This document shows, in pieces, positions 1-10,523 of a stretch of 35,017 bases of DNA. Source of the DNA: a virus (taxonomy: Duplodnaviria; Caudoviricetes); the IMG/VR virus record IMGVR_UViG_3300010005_000003, positions 1 to 35,017 of that record; one strand, given 5' to 3'. The notes below the pieces were generated by a model. It saw nothing but the letters and a program-made list of their open reading frames with translations. It had not been told where the DNA came from and ran no database searches. Both the position numbers and the translations under genes were made by a program. How positions within the stretch are numbered: the stretch's first letter is position 1; each line of letters starts with the position of its first letter.

Positions 1-2466
1 CGCCTCGAAGAAGAGGCTCGCGGCAAGACAATTGCCCGCTTCCACAAGGAACACTTAGAGGGGACTTTAGGGGAGACCTTTAGTGAAACCTTTATGGGTT
101 CACACCTCCTGAAACAATATTTCATTCCCTACGAAAAGGGTATCTCAGAGTGGCTCTCTAAGGCCAACTCAGGAAGGGCTGGAGCCCGGAACCTGTCTGC
201 GAAGCTGCTGGATGGGATCGACACACCGACGATCACCTTCCTGATGCTCAAGGCGATCCTGAACAAGGTCTGCGTCTATTTCGAGAACAAGCCGTGCTCG
301 CTCACCAGCCTTTGTCTCTATGGCGCCAGCCTCATCCACGACGAGATGCGCCTCAGGGAGTTCGACGAGCTACACGCTAAGCTCTCCAAGCGCATCCACG
401 AGGACTTCAATCAGCGTGAGCTTCCCCGCTACAAGCGTGAGGAGTACATGCAAAGGGAGTTCGCCAAGCAGAACATGGACTGGGCTGTCTGGACGAAGTC
501 GGACATGCTCCACGTCGGCATGGCCCTCCTGGACATCTTCCGTGAAGTCACGGGTGACATCGAAGTGGCCACCACCGGGTCGGGACAGGCGAAGATGGAC
601 ATTGTCCGTCCGTCGCTGGGTCTCATCCAGGCCGTCGAGATGACCGCAGATCACTGCGAGGCTCTCTTTACGACCTACTTCCCCATGGTGATCCCTCCGG
701 TTCCCTGGTCGCTCGATACGCTCGACCGGGGCGGTTACCTGACGCACAACGTGTCTCCCTATCCGCTCGTCAAGAACAGCAAGAAGGCGTACCGCGAAGT
801 GCTCCGCAAGGCTGTCCGCGATGGGACCGTGAGCCGGGTGCTGGCTGGTGTCAACGCCCTCCAGGAGACCGCCTGGAAGGTCAACGAGCGTGTCCTCGAC
901 GTCATGGAGTGGGTCTATGAGCGCAACATCAAGTGCGGCAAGCTGCCCCTGGCTGAAGACATAGAGCCCGATCCACCGCCGATGTCCCTTGAGGGCCTCG
1001 ACCGGGATGACCCGAGGGTGAAGGAGTACCGGGCGCATTGCTTCAAGATCCACGAACACAACCGCCGCATCGTCGGCAAGCGCGTGATGGCCTCCAGGTC
1101 ATTCTCCATAGCTCGCAAGATGGCCAAGTATGGCGCCATCTACTTTCCTCACGATCTCGACAGCCGAGGCAGGGCATACCCCAGGACCTCGGCCCTTCAC
1201 CCGCAAGGACCGGACTATGTCAAAGGCCTCCTTCAGTTTGCGAAAGGCAAACGTCTCGGCACAGAAGGCCGCTACTGGCTGGGTGTGCACGGAGCTAATT
1301 GTTATGGGGAAGACAAGCTACCTCTGGACGAACGCTTCGCATGGGCTGTCAATCATCTCGACCTCGCCCGACGTGTGGCCCAAGACCCCCGGAAAAATGC
1401 TTCCGAATGGACGAAAGCAGATAACCCTGCTCAATTCCTTGCTTGGTGCTACGATTGGGCCGAAGCCCACGCGACCGACCGCCCCGAGGATCATATAAGC
1501 CACCTCCATGTGGACCTCGACGCAACCTGCTCGGGCCTCCAGCACTTCTCGGCAATGCTCCGCGATGCGGTGGGCGGCTTCCACGTCAACATGACGCCCA
1601 ACAAGGTGCGCCAGGACGTCTACGGCGCCGTCGCCACGGAAGCCCTGAAACTCATCGAGATGGACGCCAAGAGCCGCTCGGACACCGCCCAGGTGGCCCA
1701 GGCGTGGCAAAGCTTCGGGGTCTCCAGGAGCATCGCCAAGCGGCCCGTCATGGTGAAGCCCTACGCTGGCACCCGTCAGTCCTGCACCACCTACGTGGCC
1801 GACAGCGTCAACGAGATGCTCGACGACGGACACCCGATGCCCTGGCCCAAGAAGGAGCTTTGGGACTTCAAGGTGTACGGCTCGGGCAAGATCTGGGAGG
1901 CGATCCCCAAGGTCGTGGTGGCCGCTGATGGCGCCATGAAGTGGCTCTCGACGATCTCCCGGCTGGTCGGCAAGTCTCAGCCCGAGATCAAGCGGATCGA
2001 GTGGACAACCCCGCTCGGCTTCCCGGTCCACCAGTACAAGTTCGACGTGGTCTCCCGCAGGGTCAAGACCAAATTCGACGGGGCGATCATCAAGCCCCGC
2101 CTGACGGAGGATGGCGACAACCTGGATGCCCGAAAGATGGCCTCCTCGGTGGCCCCTTCGTTCGTCCACAGCCTCGACGCATGTCACCTCCAGGCCACCA
2201 TAGCGGCGGCTCGGGAAGAGGGCATGACGGATTTCGCGGCTGTTCATGACAGCTTCGGGGTTCACGCCTGTGACATCCCCAAGTTCACCCGGATCATCCG
2301 CGAGCAATTCGTGAAGATGTATTCCGAGCACGATGTGCTGAGCGAGTTCCTTGAGAGCGCTCTGCCGCTGATCGCTGAGGAGTTCCGAAAGGATATTCCC
2401 CCGGTGCCAGCAAAGGGTTCCCTGGATCTCCAGGGCATCCTTGAGAATGAGTTTTTCTTTAGCTAA
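1..2466 (+). CDS. gp1: T7-like single-subunit DNA-directed RNA polymerase (5' end truncated by the window edge)
   Basis: Frame is open from base 1. Motifs DSRGRAYP, DATCSGLQH (motif A), KRPVMVKPY (motif B), VHDSF (motif C), and C-terminal FFFS (T7 has FAFA). Confidence 0.98.
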   Translation, partial: RLEEEARGKTIARFHKEHLEGTLGETFSETFMGSHLLKQYFIPYEKGISEWLSKANSGRAGARNLSAKLLDGIDTPTITFLMLKAILNKVCVYFENKPCSLTSLCLYGASLIHDEMRLREFDELHAKLSKRIHEDFNQRELPRYKREEYMQREFAKQNMDWAVWTKSDMLHVGMALLDIFREVTGDIEVATTGSGQAKMDIVRPSLGLIQAVEMTADHCEALFTTYFPMVIPPVPWSLDTLDRGGYLTHNVSPYPLVKNSKKAYREVLRKAVRDGTVSRVLAGVNALQETAWKVNERVLDVMEWVYERNIKCGKLPLAEDIEPDPPPMSLEGLDRDDPRVKEYRAHCFKIHEHNRRIVGKRVMASRSFSIARKMAKYGAIYFPHDLDSRGRAYPRTSALHPQGPDYVKGLLQFAKGKRLGTEGRYWLGVHGANCYGEDKLPLDERFAWAVNHLDLARRVAQDPRKNASEWTKADNPAQFLAWCYDWAEAHATDRPEDHISHLHVDLDATCSGLQHFSAMLRDAVGGFHVNMTPNKVRQDVYGAVATEALKLIEMDAKSRSDTAQVAQAWQSFGVSRSIAKRPVMVKPYAGTRQSCTTYVADSVNEMLDDGHPMPWPKKELWDFKVYGSGKIWEAIPKVVVAADGAMKWLSTISRLVGKSQPEIKRIEWTTPLGFPVHQYKFDVVSRRVKTKFDGAIIKPRLTEDGDNLDARKMASSVAPSFVHSLDACHLQATIAAAREEGMTDFAAVHDSFGVHACDIPKFTRIIREQFVKMYSEHDVLSEFLESALPLIAEEFRKDIPPVPAKGSLDLQGILENEFFFS

Positions 2467-2496: not shown

Positions 2497-3099
2497 ATGA
2501 TGGACTTTCAAAAAGGCGACCGCGTCGAGCGCACCACCGTGCAGAACGGGCCTGATGTTCCGGTGGGTTCGAAAGGGACGGTCATTGGGAAACAGTACGG
2601 CCTGACCGTTGTCGCTTGGGACGGGGGGCCGCGCCACAATCGCAACATGCCCCGCCACCTCAAGAAGATTGCCGACGCGCCGCGCATCAAGGTCGGTGAC
2701 CGCGTCGTCTTCCGGAACTACAAGTTCGGCAGGGATTGCTGCGGCACCGTCTCCCGGATCAACGGCCAATGTGTGTGGGCCGAAAACTGGTCTGTCGGCA
2801 GCCGCAAAGGCTTCCTTATGATGGAAGACCTCGAAGTGATCGAAGAGCCGAAGCCGTTCGCCAAGCCCCAGGTTGCCCCCAAGCCGAACAACTCCGGTTC
2901 CTATATCGTGGCCCTCGAAGACGAGGACGGGCTGCATCCCAACAAGAACCCCAAGGTTCACCACGACAGCGGCGTGGCACTGCTCGAAGCCGAGCGGCTC
3001 GCCAAGAAGCACGGCGGCAAGTTCGTCGTCCTGAAGCGTATGGCCCACGCCGAGAGGCCCCCGGTGATCATCCCGGAGACGACACTGGTCGTCTATTGA
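2497..3099 (+). CDS. Hypothetical protein with two SH3/KOW-like repeats and a C-terminal 'EAERLA' phage domain
   Basis: GAGG RBS and phage-like codon usage. Repeated FQKGDRV / IKVGDRV starts. Confidence 0.85.
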   Translation: MMDFQKGDRVERTTVQNGPDVPVGSKGTVIGKQYGLTVVAWDGGPRHNRNMPRHLKKIADAPRIKVGDRVVFRNYKFGRDCCGTVSRINGQCVWAENWSVGSRKGFLMMEDLEVIEEPKPFAKPQVAPKPNNSGSYIVALEDEDGLHPNKNPKVHHDSGVALLEAERLAKKHGGKFVVLKRMAHAERPPVIIPETTLVVY

Positions 3100-3120
3100 G
3101 ATCACACCTTTAACTGAATG

Positions 3121-3141
3121 CCTTCGATAACGAAGAGGAAA
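3121..3141 (+). repeat. 21-bp direct repeat, copy 2: palindrome plus RBS
   Basis: Exact match to 2470-2490. Confidence 0.9.
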
Positions 3142-3146
3142 CAGAA

Positions 3147-3455
3147 TTGATCAACATCATCATCCGCCTTGCCATCGCCTCGGGGCTCCTGAAGCCGACC
3201 ACCGACATGATCATCGGCGGCATCGCCAAGTCCATCGACAGCCTCACCAAGGTCTCCGAGAAGCACCAGAAGGTGCACGACAAGGCCGAGGCTGAAGCAG
3301 CCGCCGCCGAGACCCGCCGTCTGGACGCGATCCGCAGGGCCAACGAGCGCAAGGAAGCCCAGCACGAGGCTGCCAAGACCAAGGCCGCGAAGGCCCGTGA
3401 AGAGTTCACCAAGGCCGAGCGCGTCAAGCAGAAGCTGGCCGACCTGATCTCGTAA
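3147..3455 (+). CDS. Hypothetical coiled-coil protein (TTG start)
   Basis: GAGG RBS, Ala/Lys/Glu-rich helix, GC3-biased codons. Confidence 0.85.
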   Translation: MINIIIRLAIASGLLKPTTDMIIGGIAKSIDSLTKVSEKHQKVHDKAEAEAAAAETRRLDAIRRANERKEAQHEAAKTKAAKAREEFTKAERVKQKLADLIS

Positions 3456-3461
3456 TTCTCA

Positions 3462-3477
3462 GGCCCCTGCGGGGGCC
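3462..3477 (+). other. GC-rich intergenic hairpin without U-tract
   Basis: GGCCCC-TGCG-GGGGCC just after the stop codon. Confidence 0.6.
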
Positions 3478-3527
3478 ACCCTCCCAGAACTCCCCAAGAA
3501 AACAAAAGACTACCAAAAGGAAATACC

Positions 3528-3767
3528 ATGAACGCCACTGCTCGCATGAAGTCCATCCGCGCCAACGCCGGTTACGTTGCTTCCTCCGTCCACTACAACC
3601 GCCGCAAGTTCGACAAGCAGTACGAAGTCGTCGCCCGTCTCTATGACGCCCAGGTGGACGAACTCGGCCTGAACATTGGCGGCGAGGTGGTCCTCGACGT
3701 CCGCGCTGACCGCGAAGACGCTCTGGCCTCCGTGCGGTTCTTCCGTGGCCAGGAAGTCGCTCGATGA
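3528..3767 (+). CDS. Hypothetical protein
   Basis: AAGGA RBS; ATGA overlap with the next gene. Confidence 0.85.
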   Translation: MNATARMKSIRANAGYVASSVHYNRRKFDKQYEVVARLYDAQVDELGLNIGGEVVLDVRADREDALASVRFFRGQEVAR

Positions 3768-5679: not shown

Positions 5680-7363
5680 CACCAACGAGAGGGCAATCCT
5701 GACGCATCAGCCCTGCCCATCCTGTGGGTCCACCGATGCGCTCTCTGTCTACCCCGACCACACCTATTGTTTCTCCTGCGAGACCCGTGGGGACGCCGAG
5801 GGCTTCGAAGCAGTCGGCACCGGCAGCAAGCTGTCCGAGGACTTCTACCGCCTGGAATACGCAGCGATCCCCGCGAGGAGCATCACTGAGGAAACCGCCC
5901 GGTTCTGGTCCTACGGCTTCGCTCAGTACCACGGCAAGAAGACCCACTGCGCCCAGTACCTCGACGACAACCGAACGGTGGTCGCCCAGAAGTTCCGGAC
6001 CCGCGACAAGCAGTTCCCCTGGATCAACCGCAGGGCCTTCACGGGGCTCTATGGGCAGTGGCTGTGGCGCCGTGGCGGCAAGCAAGTGGTGATCACCGAG
6101 GGTGAAATCGACGCCATGTCGGTCTCCCAGGTGCAGAACCACAAGTGGCCCGTCGTGTCCGTCTGCGATGGCGGCGGCAAGAACGCCGTGAACAACATCA
6201 AGGAAGCCTACGAGTGGCTCTCGACGTTCGACAAGATCATCCTGTTCTTCGACAACGACGAGAAGGGCAGGGCGTCTGTCGATCTCCTCAAGAAGCTCCT
6301 GCCGGTCGGCAAGGTCTACATCGCCTTCACCCCTGAGGGCTACAAGGACCCCAACGACCTCCTGATGGCTGGCAAAGGCAAGGCCATCATCGACGCGATC
6401 TGGGAAGCGAAGCAGTGGGTTCCCGCTGGCATCGTGACGGGCTCGAAGATCATCGAGCGGCTCAAGAACCGGCCCCCGGTGACGAGCTATCCGTACCCCG
6501 ACATCATGCCCGAGTTGAACCGCAAGGTGCTCGGGATACGCCTGGGGGAACTCGATACGTGGACGTCAGGCACCGGCATGGGCAAGACGACCATCATCAA
6601 GGCCCTCCAGAACCACTTCTTCCACACCACTGATTTCAATCAGGCCCTCATCCACCTTGAGGAGCCCCTGGAGGATACCGGCGATGACCTCATTGCCTAT
6701 GAAGTTGGCCGACGTTTCCAGGTGGAGCTTCCCAGCGATGGGGAGACCGCCTTCCGAGATACCCCCGAGTACCTCGCCGCCGCTGAAGCGCTCTTTCTGG
6801 CAACAGATGCAGAGGGTCACAGTCGTCTCCAGCTTTATGACGCATTTGGCTCGCTTGAAGACGACAGCCTTTACCAGACCATCCGGTATCTCGCGATGGC
6901 CTGCGGGGTCAAAGTCTTCTGGCTCGACCACCTTTCGATCCTGGTCTCAGACGGTAAGGAGGACGATGAACGAAAGCGCATCGACGCCATCATGCACAAC
7001 CTCAAGAGCCTGACCGTGGAACTCAACATCTACATCGGGCTCATCTCTCACCTCAGGAAACCCCCAGGAAATGGCAAGAGCTTTGAGCAGGGCGCTGTCC
7101 CTAGCTTGGACGATCTGCGTGGCTCTGGTGGCATCAAGCAGCTTAGCAATGGCGTCTATGCCATCTCGCGAAATCAGCAAGATCCCAACCCAGTTGCTCG
7201 CAATACTTCCACCATCACGGTCCTCAAGTGCCGCAAAACGGGCCGCACTGGAACCGCCGATCATCTGACATTCGAAGACGACACTGGCCGGATTGTCGCC
7301 GGGGTTGACCCCAACTCCTTCGACGACTTCGACGACGAGGCACCCTCCGATGTCGGATACTGA
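5672..7363 (+). CDS. gp4: DNA primase/helicase (T7 gp4-like)
   Basis: Zn finger CPSC..CFSC, TOPRIM EGEIDA / FDND, Walker A SGTGMGKTT, LDHL, SHLRK, LRGSG. Confidence 0.98.
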   Translation: MDDTNERAILTHQPCPSCGSTDALSVYPDHTYCFSCETRGDAEGFEAVGTGSKLSEDFYRLEYAAIPARSITEETARFWSYGFAQYHGKKTHCAQYLDDNRTVVAQKFRTRDKQFPWINRRAFTGLYGQWLWRRGGKQVVITEGEIDAMSVSQVQNHKWPVVSVCDGGGKNAVNNIKEAYEWLSTFDKIILFFDNDEKGRASVDLLKKLLPVGKVYIAFTPEGYKDPNDLLMAGKGKAIIDAIWEAKQWVPAGIVTGSKIIERLKNRPPVTSYPYPDIMPELNRKVLGIRLGELDTWTSGTGMGKTTIIKALQNHFFHTTDFNQALIHLEEPLEDTGDDLIAYEVGRRFQVELPSDGETAFRDTPEYLAAAEALFLATDAEGHSRLQLYDAFGSLEDDSLYQTIRYLAMACGVKVFWLDHLSILVSDGKEDDERKRIDAIMHNLKSLTVELNIYIGLISHLRKPPGNGKSFEQGAVPSLDDLRGSGGIKQLSNGVYAISRNQQDPNPVARNTSTITVLKCRKTGRTGTADHLTFEDDTGRIVAGVDPNSFDDFDDEAPSDVGY

Positions 7364-8306: not shown

Positions 8307-8503
8307 TGGATGACCCGACGCGCCCCTGGGGCTTCTTCATGATCCTCCTGACGGTGGCCCTCGCGGCTGCCCTCTGGTTCCACGACACGGCCAAGACGCC
8401 GGAAGCCCCGCGTCCCCTCCCGGTGACATCCTACTGCTCCGACGAGGACGGCCACTTCTACCGCTGCGATGACCCCTGGGTCACCCGGGTCTACACCATC
8501 TAG
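8306..8503 (+). CDS. Small membrane-anchored protein
   Basis: TGATG coupling, N-terminal transmembrane helix, two Cys in the C-terminal part. Confidence 0.75.
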   Translation: MDDPTRPWGFFMILLTVALAAALWFHDTAKTPEAPRPLPVTSYCSDEDGHFYRCDDPWVTRVYTI

Positions 8504-8531
8504 CAGCGCTTCTACACCTGGGTTTAACCCA

Positions 8532-10523
8532 TTGAAAACTCTACTATTTGACATCGAGACCAATGGGTTGCTCGACACGATGACCCGTGTGCACTCGCTT
8601 GTCATCAAGGACATCGACACCGGGGAAGTCCTCTCGTTCACCGACGAGACCTACCCCGGCAAGTTCTACAAGCCCGTCGCTGACGGCGTCCGCATGCTGA
8701 TGGAAGCTGAATGCATCATCGGCCACAACGTCATCAAGTTCGACCTTCCGGCGCTCCAGAAGCTCTACCCCTGGTTCCAGTTCGACCGCAAGCGCGTGTT
8801 CGATACCCTGGTTGCCGCCCGGGTGATCTGGCCGCAGGTCGTCGATCTGGACATGATGAAGATCAGGGCAGGGAAGACCACCCTGACGCCCAAGCTCGCT
8901 GGCAGCCACTCCCTGGAGGCGTGGGGTCACCGCGTGGGCAACTGGAAGGGCGACTTCTCGGCGGTCAAGAAGGCCGAGGGTGAAGCGCTCGGTGTCTCCA
9001 AGGAAGAGATCGACAACTGGATTTGGGCCGAGTGGTCCAAAGATATGCAGGATTACTGCGAGCAAGACGTGGAGGTCACGCACCTCCTATTCAATCGGAT
9101 TGTCTCGAAGAACTATTCCACCCAGTGCCTGACGCTGGAGCATGAAGTTGCGTTCATCATGGCCGAGGTGGAGCGTAACGGCTTCAACTTCGACATGAAA
9201 GCCGCCGAGGACCTGTATCGGCAACTCGCTGGCATCCGTGAGGAGATGGCCCAGGAACTGCGGGACATCTACCCGCCCTGGGAGGTCAAGAACGGCCCAC
9301 CCTTCGTCCCCAAGAGGGACAACGCGAGGCTCGGCTACAAGGCCGGTGTCCCCGTCCAGAAATGGAAAACCCTCGTCTTCAACCCGAACTCCCGGGACCA
9401 CATCGCGGATCGTCTGATGACGGTCAACGGGTGGAAACCCACGGAGTTCACCGCCACGGGGAAACCCAAGGTGGACGAAGACGTGCTCTCAGCGCTGCCC
9501 TATCCCCAGGCGCAGCGTATCGCAGAATACATGACCATCCAGAAGCGGCTTGGTCAGATTGCCGAAGGTGACAATGGCTGGATTGGAAGTGTTCAACGAG
9601 ACGGTCGAATACATGGTTCGATCAACCCGAATGGAGCGGTCACAGGTCGTGCAACGCATAGCCGACCAAATGTCGCACAGGTTCCGAAAGTTGGGACCGT
9701 ATATGGCGCCGAATGCCGAGCCCTCTTTTGTGCGACTTCCGGGAAGACCCTCCTTCTTGGTTGTGACGTCTCAGGCCTTGAACTCCGAATGCTCGGTCAT
9801 TTCATGGCTGAATTTGACGGAGGCGCTTACGCCGACGAAGTCGTTAACGGTGACGTCCACACCCGCAACCAGCTAGCCGCCGGGCTGCCCACCCGAGACA
9901 ACGCCAAGACCTTCATCTACGCCTTCCTCTACGGGGCTGGCGACGAGAAGATCGGCAGCATCATCGGCAAGGGCAAGAAGGAAGGCGCGGCGGTCAAGAA
10001 GAAGTTCTTCGCTGAGGTCCCCGCGCTGAAGGACCTGATCGACAAGATCCAACTGATCGTCGGCAGCTACCGGCGCATCAAGGGTGAACCCACGGGACCG
10101 CAGAAGGACCGCTGGCGCTACTACAAGAAGGTCAAGGACCGCTGGTGGCGCAAGGGTGACAAGGTGAGCCCCCTCACGGGTCTCGACGGTCGCCTCCTGC
10201 ACATCCGCTCGGAACACTCTGCGCTGAACACCTTGCTCCAGTCCGCTGGCGCCATCGTGTGCAAGCAGTGGATCGTCGAGTTCGACCGCCTTCTGACCGA
10301 GGCTGGTATCCGGCATCTCGTCCGTATCGTCGCCTGGGTCCATGACGAACTCCAAATGGAGGTCGATCTGTCTCTAATCGTCTTCGATAGCGAAGGCAAA
10401 GCAACATCCATCGTCGGTGACATCTGCATCGCAGCCATCGTCGAGGCCGGTCACAAGCTCGGGATCACCGTGCCGCTGTCTGGCGAATACAAAATCGGAA
10501 ACAACTGGAAGGAAACGCACTGA
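8532..10523 (+). CDS. gp5: Family A DNA polymerase with 3'-5' exonuclease (T7 gp5-like); likely TTG start at 8532
   Basis: FDIETNG, GHNVIKFD, YCEQDV, DVSGLELR, RDNAKTFIYAFLYGAG, VHDE. Confidence 0.98.
   Translation: MKTLLFDIETNGLLDTMTRVHSLVIKDIDTGEVLSFTDETYPGKFYKPVADGVRMLMEAECIIGHNVIKFDLPALQKLYPWFQFDRKRVFDTLVAARVIWPQVVDLDMMKIRAGKTTLTPKLAGSHSLEAWGHRVGNWKGDFSAVKKAEGEALGVSKEEIDNWIWAEWSKDMQDYCEQDVEVTHLLFNRIVSKNYSTQCLTLEHEVAFIMAEVERNGFNFDMKAAEDLYRQLAGIREEMAQELRDIYPPWEVKNGPPFVPKRDNARLGYKAGVPVQKWKTLVFNPNSRDHIADRLMTVNGWKPTEFTATGKPKVDEDVLSALPYPQAQRIAEYMTIQKRLGQIAEGDNGWIGSVQRDGRIHGSINPNGAVTGRATHSRPNVAQVPKVGTVYGAECRALFCATSGKTLLLGCDVSGLELRMLGHFMAEFDGGAYADEVVNGDVHTRNQLAAGLPTRDNAKTFIYAFLYGAGDEKIGSIIGKGKKEGAAVKKKFFAEVPALKDLIDKIQLIVGSYRRIKGEPTGPQKDRWRYYKKVKDRWWRKGDKVSPLTGLDGRLLHIRSEHSALNTLLQSAGAIVCKQWIVEFDRLLTEAGIRHLVRIVAWVHDELQMEVDLSLIVFDSEGKATSIVGDICIAAIVEAGHKLGITVPLSGEYKIGNNWKETH

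Follow-up and report, generated by a model that had tools for sequence, protein, structure and literature searches.

Within the gene that encodes the DNA polymerase in a T7-like phage, and wholly enclosed by this essential gene, lies a 100-codon frame, shifted with respect to the host gene, that spans two polymerase motifs, motif 2 (TGR) and the catalytic motif A, which raises the question of whether the same nucleotides encode a second protein. The phage record examined here, hereafter the window (the whole stretch of DNA analysed, 35,017 nt), is 61% G+C and 81% complete, and follows the T7 gene order, with RNA polymerase, endonuclease I, primase-helicase, DNA polymerase and exonuclease preceding the structural genes. 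The named relatives of its polymerase, at 52-58%, come from Aminobacter, Rhizobium and Mesorhizobium assemblies, and soil and rhizosphere sequencing runs contain close relatives of the phage, whose host is presumably an alphaproteobacterium. The features of the locus are as follows.

8469..10523, plus strand: host gene, a T7 gp5-like family A DNA polymerase (PF00476, phrog_17), whose true start is perhaps slightly downstream
9549..9851, plus strand: patch of 101 polymerase codons with A/T-rich third positions
9565..9571, plus strand: Shine-Dalgarno-like (SD) AAGGTGA, written by polymerase codons E-G-D, 2 nt before ATG 9574
9574..9876, plus strand: candidate overprinted gene of 100 aa, read in the polymerase ORF's +1 frame, from ATG 9574 to TAG 9876
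9657..9674, plus strand: polymerase codons H-S-R-P-N-V
9873..9876, plus strand: CTA-G giving the TAG stop; the codon is Leu here and Ile in the close homologue P0002, whereas most homologues have E, K, Q or A

Open frame, third-position patch and predicted peptide

An earlier note, made from the letters of the window, had described this frame, the AAGGTGA ahead of its ATG and the origin of its stop in a rare CTA codon. All three were recovered: the quoted peptide is reproduced in the +1 frame of 8469-10523, the motif stands at 9565-9571, and the CTA is one of five in the polymerase ORF. By themselves, length, ATG and SD are nevertheless unremarkable, and ORF length and SD strength were rejected as stand-alone evidence. 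In 8713 codons of 20 genes, 13 stop-free +1 runs reach at least 100 codons and 11 ATG-started +1 runs reach at least 80 aa, while the probability that the frame at 9574-9876 stays open is 0.25 under genome codon use, 0.12-0.14 under A/T-shifted use and 0.02 under third-base shuffles. The SD and ATG are encoded by conserved polymerase codons (E-G-D-N), and the SD ranks in the top 9% of 96 +1-frame ATGs when scored with a 13-nt anti-SD, or in the top 27% with a 9-nt anti-SD. The four remaining frames across the patch are all interrupted by stops.

What clearly exceeds chance is the patch, and not the ORF by itself. Fifty-six of its 101 codons end in A or T, against 17% in the rest of the polymerase gene (binomial p 2e-18), making it the strongest 100-codon A/T patch among 27 ORFs scanned; a recount also reproduced the contrast drawn in the earlier note, of 27 A/T-ending codons out of 42 at 9579-9704 versus 3 out of 42 after the stop, the patch itself reaching beyond the stretch counted there. 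Change-point analysis places the start of the patch at 9474-9564 and its end at 9813-9870 (95% intervals), and these edges match the ORF, with the ATG 25 nt past the patch start and the stop 23 nt past the patch end; a stop within 8 codons of the patch end has a probability of 0.24. Near the ends of the ORF, the polymerase residues G9585, E9810 and R9864 are absent from all 127-133 homologues, and Leu or Ile occupies the stop-codon position in 7 of about 134. Within the patch, CGA serves for 5 of 6 Arg codons, compared with 1 of 31 elsewhere and with 13% in 11 polymerases of similar A/T content (p 2e-4, post hoc).

Since the genome carries about 80% G/C at third positions, its +1 frames tend to spell Ser, Arg, Pro and Thr; these residues make up 0.60-0.68 of six long shadow ORFs and 0.37 of the 9574-9876 product, with a seventh shadow (8711) at 0.32. 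The earlier note read the peptide as a genuine amphipathic helical protein rather than a shadow of this kind. Any A/T patch, however, gives the +1 frame less of this shadow look, and the low share could come either from selection on a +1 protein or from a foreign tract. The amphipathic N-terminus does hold up: its hydrophobic moment exceeds that of third-base shuffles in which the polymerase protein is preserved (p=0.003 for the first 45 residues, p=0.021 for the maximum; fixed windows, five statistics tried), and the same test on shadow ORFs brought one of six to p=0.014. A codon score computed with stop-risk sites dropped was +0.028, a value reached by 3.7% of 134 null windows, with controls at -0.09 to +0.02; its entire signal falls in the first half of the ORF, the second half scoring like the null, and against third-base shuffles without stop sites it gave p=0.31, most positive controls being likewise non-significant. 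Taken together, tests that leave both the polymerase protein and the composition of the patch unchanged lend selection moderate support.

The peptide (P0001) carries a net charge of +2 and was modelled at low confidence (pLDDT 56) with helices at 2-17 and 22-43, strands at 49-79 and an S/T/P tail; Foldseek returned no match to this model at E<=0.001. The peptide had no homologue among 5.8 billion proteins and 1.84 billion representatives, nor in Pfam, PHROGs and the Atlas, and in a translated search (tblastn), as proposed in the earlier note, T7 records gave no match. Three weak tblastn matches (E 0.07-0.6) lie inside other polymerases and were rejected as shadows.

Further +1 frames in the RNA polymerase and helicase genes

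A hidden Markov model found further internal A/T patches in the window, and these carry +1 ORFs, of which those in the RNA polymerase gene and at the helicase C-terminus serve as controls.

1217..1498, plus strand: conserved 93-aa +1 ORF in the RNA polymerase gene, over an A/T patch at 1195-1443
6684-7013, plus strand: 109-aa +1 ORF in the middle of the helicase gene, with a GGAGG SD, over a patch at 6674-6859
7071..7268, plus strand: 65-aa +1 ORF at the helicase C-terminus, matching T7 gene 4.2 in both position and frame

In the RNA polymerase gene, ATG 1217 follows an AAGGA 7 nt upstream, an arrangement shared by most of the patch-bearing sequences; in relatives the ORF runs for about 73-97 aa. 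Among 49 distinct sequences, the +1 frame is stop-free over 80 codons in 7 of 7 with the patch and in 3 of 42 without it (Fisher 1e-6, among kin that are not independent), and the ATG occupies the same codon in 6 of the 7 patch-bearing sequences, as it also does in many without the patch. Third positions are identical at 35 of 45 sites in the patch versus 262 of 447 outside it, and at 17 of 45 when the comparison is made with G007, an equally related genome whose region lacks both patch and ATG and contains stops. Protein identity over the patch is about equal with the patch-bearing kin and with G007; conserved third positions under equal protein identity thus indicate constraint rather than a recent sweep. 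Neither PHROGs nor Pfam contains a family for the ORF, and the Atlas gave no match at 0.9. The earlier note had ranked 9574-9876 as the best-supported overprint, a place that passes to this putative gene, since its conservation across relatives makes it the better-supported of the two candidates.

At the helicase C-terminus, patch, ATG and stop are common to the window, G001, G010 and G011. The ORF encodes a hydrophobic N-terminus and starts three codons from the start of T7 gene 4.2, in the same frame, with no sequence similarity to gp4.2. This frame is also open in patch-less relatives, so it is the start and the patch that carry this control. Both testable cases in this clade show the A/T-patch signature marking a conserved, putatively coding ORF. 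For the ORF in the middle of the helicase, G013 shares ATG, SD and open frame, and GC-rich kin have a stop 5 codons into the patch. Distant relatives also carry A/T patches with +1 ATGs, in a primase-helicase or polymerase gene (L019 843-980 and 3176-3508; L064 3500-3649).

Relatives, close strains and competing explanations

The +1 ORF in the DNA polymerase gene has a narrower distribution than the polymerase frame that hosts it. The patch is absent from the relatives compared at 76% identity or less, in which the largest A/T excess was +0.15 among 70 distinct polymerases, +0.13 in 15 rows and +0.12 in 21 rows; the +1 frame is open over the span in 4 of the 70 and in 3 of the 9 closest, all of them without a comparable patch or ATG. 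Close kin consist only of P0002 (90% protein identity) and contigs in sequencing runs, other proteins being at most 76% identical over the patch. In two loci, L052 and L054 (G003, G004), the +1 frame around motif 2 is open for 158 codons with an A/T excess of +0.12 to +0.13, and an AAGG-ATG stands 12 codons downstream of the position of the 9574 start; this is possibly an independent overprint at the same polymerase site.

Close strains were compared in 4 of 16 runs (X1, X4, X5 and X6) and over 40 of 202 rows of differences. None of the 16 runs listed was of RNA, which says nothing for or against expression. X1 and X4 mostly carry the window allele, and X5 and X6 have another allele in common, in which counts of change types bound the patch at no fewer than 38 A/T codons of 101 in X6 and at least 25 of 79 in X5. 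Its presence in both implies that the patch is older than their split from the window allele. Among those 40 of 202 rows, none of the X5/X6 differences makes a stop or touches the SD, the ATG or the TAG, so that patch-bearing relatives with stops in this frame, which the earlier note had looked to as evidence against a gene, did not appear there. In the same set, all 12 single differences listed within the ORF for X5/X6 alter the peptide, 10 of them being silent in the polymerase; they include L4S, M14T, V15A, R22P, V26E, D31A, Q32L and S34L, several of which fall on the hydrophobic helix face. Furthermore, the divergence of X5 is 40/297 within the patch and lower, at 9/207, upstream of it (p 6e-4, on different contigs). 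These peptide changes and the raised divergence of X5 argue against strong purifying selection, and the pattern would fit a young gene as described in PMC3494269 or a decaying one.

A relic or proto-gene, in which selection on the +1 frame once made the patch and the gene is now non-functional or weakly translated and decaying, at least in the X5/X6 lineage, would account for the loss of hydrophobic-face residues and the gain of a helix-breaking Pro in these strains, as well as for the higher divergence of X5 in the patch. Among third-position differences found solely in X5/X6, those toward G/C outnumber the others 4 to 1, a bias that is not significant, and G007, which lacks the RNA polymerase patch and has stops among patch-bearing kin, suggests that ORFs of this kind can be lost in the clade. 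The copy in the window, however, keeps its start and stop, its SD, an open frame and the amphipathicity, and no variant breaks the frame among the 40 of 202 rows; we consider decay unlikely.

Between 9150 and 10250, allele sharing switches along the polymerase gene, with X4 resembling X6 upstream, X5 resembling X6 in the patch and X1 resembling X6 downstream, which suggests recombination, several of the runs being in separate contigs. A tract brought in from a lower-GC phage by co-conversion or recombination around a homing-endonuclease target would leave the ORF as a mere shadow. We take the Pro-Asn pair in 9657..9674 to be site 674, following E. coli numbering. Covered by the patch, this pair matches an intron insertion site of phage polymerases (site 674), 4 nt upstream of which I-PfoP3I makes its nick (PMC3428280); introns sit at the Pro-Asn site in the SPO1, Bastille and Pf-WMP3 polymerases (PMC3428280), and endonuclease genes are often located near polymerase genes, with collaborative homing described in T7-like phages (PMC10448857, PMC6083498). 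The window and X5/X6 disagree at five codons of the site (H, S, R, P and V), among them Ser, where AGC stands against TCG, and the shifting allele sharing among X1, X4, X5 and X6 points the same way. So does the polymerase homologue P0104, nearer to the window over the patch, at 73%, than over the rest of the gene, at 53% (z 2.8), which joins the window at 92/78, unstarred, in a patch tree that is mostly unresolved, and so does the split polymerase of L057. In L057, about 660 nt (2983-3641) interrupt the gene near motif B, at query residue 460, possibly as an intron.

Against this origin, no intron or homing endonuclease gene was found in or beside the polymerase gene of this 81% complete record, the 19 and 24 ORFs scanned for HNH and GIY-YIG families giving only endonuclease I. 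None of the listed rare residues recurs in P0104, and the nearest patch proteins with known DNA (73-74%) belong to GC3-rich kin, mid-GC relatives reaching 55-56%. Phage records contained no donor (best, 74% over 41% of the patch); IMG/VR gave no match to a clade-specific motif, and there was no plasmid match. Such a tract would also leave CGA use, amphipathicity and the match of the edges unexplained. The co-conversion origin, which the earlier note had raised against its own reading, is thereby weakened by the lack of endonuclease, intron and donor, with the overlap of the Pro-Asn site and the affinity of P0104 still speaking for it; we judge it improbable as the source of the patch, on top of which local exchange at site 674 may have occurred.

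A non-coding constraint, such as RNA structure, an internal phage promoter, a replication origin or translational pausing, might also keep the stretch A/T-rich, and the patch does fold mostly more weakly than the sequence upstream (-8 to -19 versus -12 to -27 kcal/mol per 60 nt). Weak folding nevertheless follows from A/T content itself, the patch contains no sigma-70 promoter or terminator match and no copy of any repeat family, and a 300-nt shift exceeds the length that non-coding signals usually need, all of which makes such a constraint very improbable. Elsewhere in the window, a 34-nt intergenic repeat (88% identical, 2457-2490 and 3108-3141) stands just upstream of genes and is a candidate phage promoter plus SD.

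A candidate young gene and its known counterparts

On balance, 9574-9876 is probably a young overprinted accessory gene. As to the earlier note's central proposal of a gene overprinted on the polymerase, it stands as the best reading of the patch edges, of the open frame with its amphipathic N-terminus and of the control ORFs that bear the same signature, tempered by a peptide that has no homologues and a patch that relatives lack. Because polymerase third positions are the second positions of the +1 frame, selection on the +1 protein would pull polymerase codons from their G/C habit toward A/T, and would at the same time shun stop-making codons and favour CGA for Arg, which reads as Glu or Asp in the +1 frame. 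Initiation at the internal SD on the replication-gene transcript would then yield the 100-aa product, a small accessory protein whose amphipathic N-terminal helices are predicted to attach to a partner. T7 gp4.2 is toxic when expressed, a toxicity suppressed in stringent-like RNA polymerase mutants (bioRxiv 10.64898/2026.01.27.700999), and gp4.2 and gp19.2 are listed, with no function given in that list, as annotated ORFs of T7-like phages (PMC4925675). From the toxicity of gp4.2 and from small T7 class II products, we tentatively guess, by analogy, that a strain-restricted and fast-evolving protein of this kind might act in host takeover or counter-defence during replication.

More broadly, the genome may hold four +1 genes of different ages, that of the RNA polymerase being clade-wide, that at the helicase end T7 4.2-like and patchy, and those of the DNA polymerase and mid-helicase strain-level. 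It is conceivable, though we would not yet call it probable, that the conserved RNA polymerase, helicase and DNA polymerase cores form a gene nursery of GC-rich T7-like phages, each gene being readable from a single genome as an A/T patch, with the DNA polymerase case a de novo protein seen as it arises across the catalytic motif A. If true, a gene laid across the catalytic core of a polymerase would show that genes can be born even within coding sequence under strong constraint. The clade offers a series for testing how such genes would arise, spread and be lost, in which close alleles differ sharply in the new frame and relatives occur with and without sister overprints. Nested ORFs are dropped by annotation pipelines, and phage accessory genes inside core genes are overlooked as a result.

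In the literature searched, which covers subscription journals thinly, we found no description of any gene lying inside the DNA or RNA polymerase gene of T7-like phages. The kind of gene is already known from T7 4.1/4.2, and it is for the site inside the DNA polymerase that the search gave no earlier report. Homing at site 674 (I-PfoP3I, I-HmuI), as described in PMC3428280, resembles the present locus in its Pro-Asn site and in close strains that differ at clustered silent positions, and differs in that the window polymerase has yielded no intron, endonuclease gene or donor. A likeness is also found in T7 itself (NC_001604.1), where 4.1 and 4.2 likewise lie, as same-strand +1 ORFs, within a replication gene that is essential, and where 4.2 displays the same third-position excess (0.65 vs 0.47), an ATG and an open frame. 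The nested genes of T7 are nevertheless not in its DNA polymerase, no gene being annotated inside gene 5 or gene 1, and T7, where it aligns with the patch, meets a stop 68 codons in.

Sabath et al. (2012, PMC3494269) describe rapid evolution and weak purifying selection in young viral genes created by overprinting. While the 12 genes of that study were experimentally validated and 9574-9876 is known from sequence alone, the candidate is like the young genes described there in its deviant codon use, its narrow distribution, its fast change and a purifying selection that is hard to detect.
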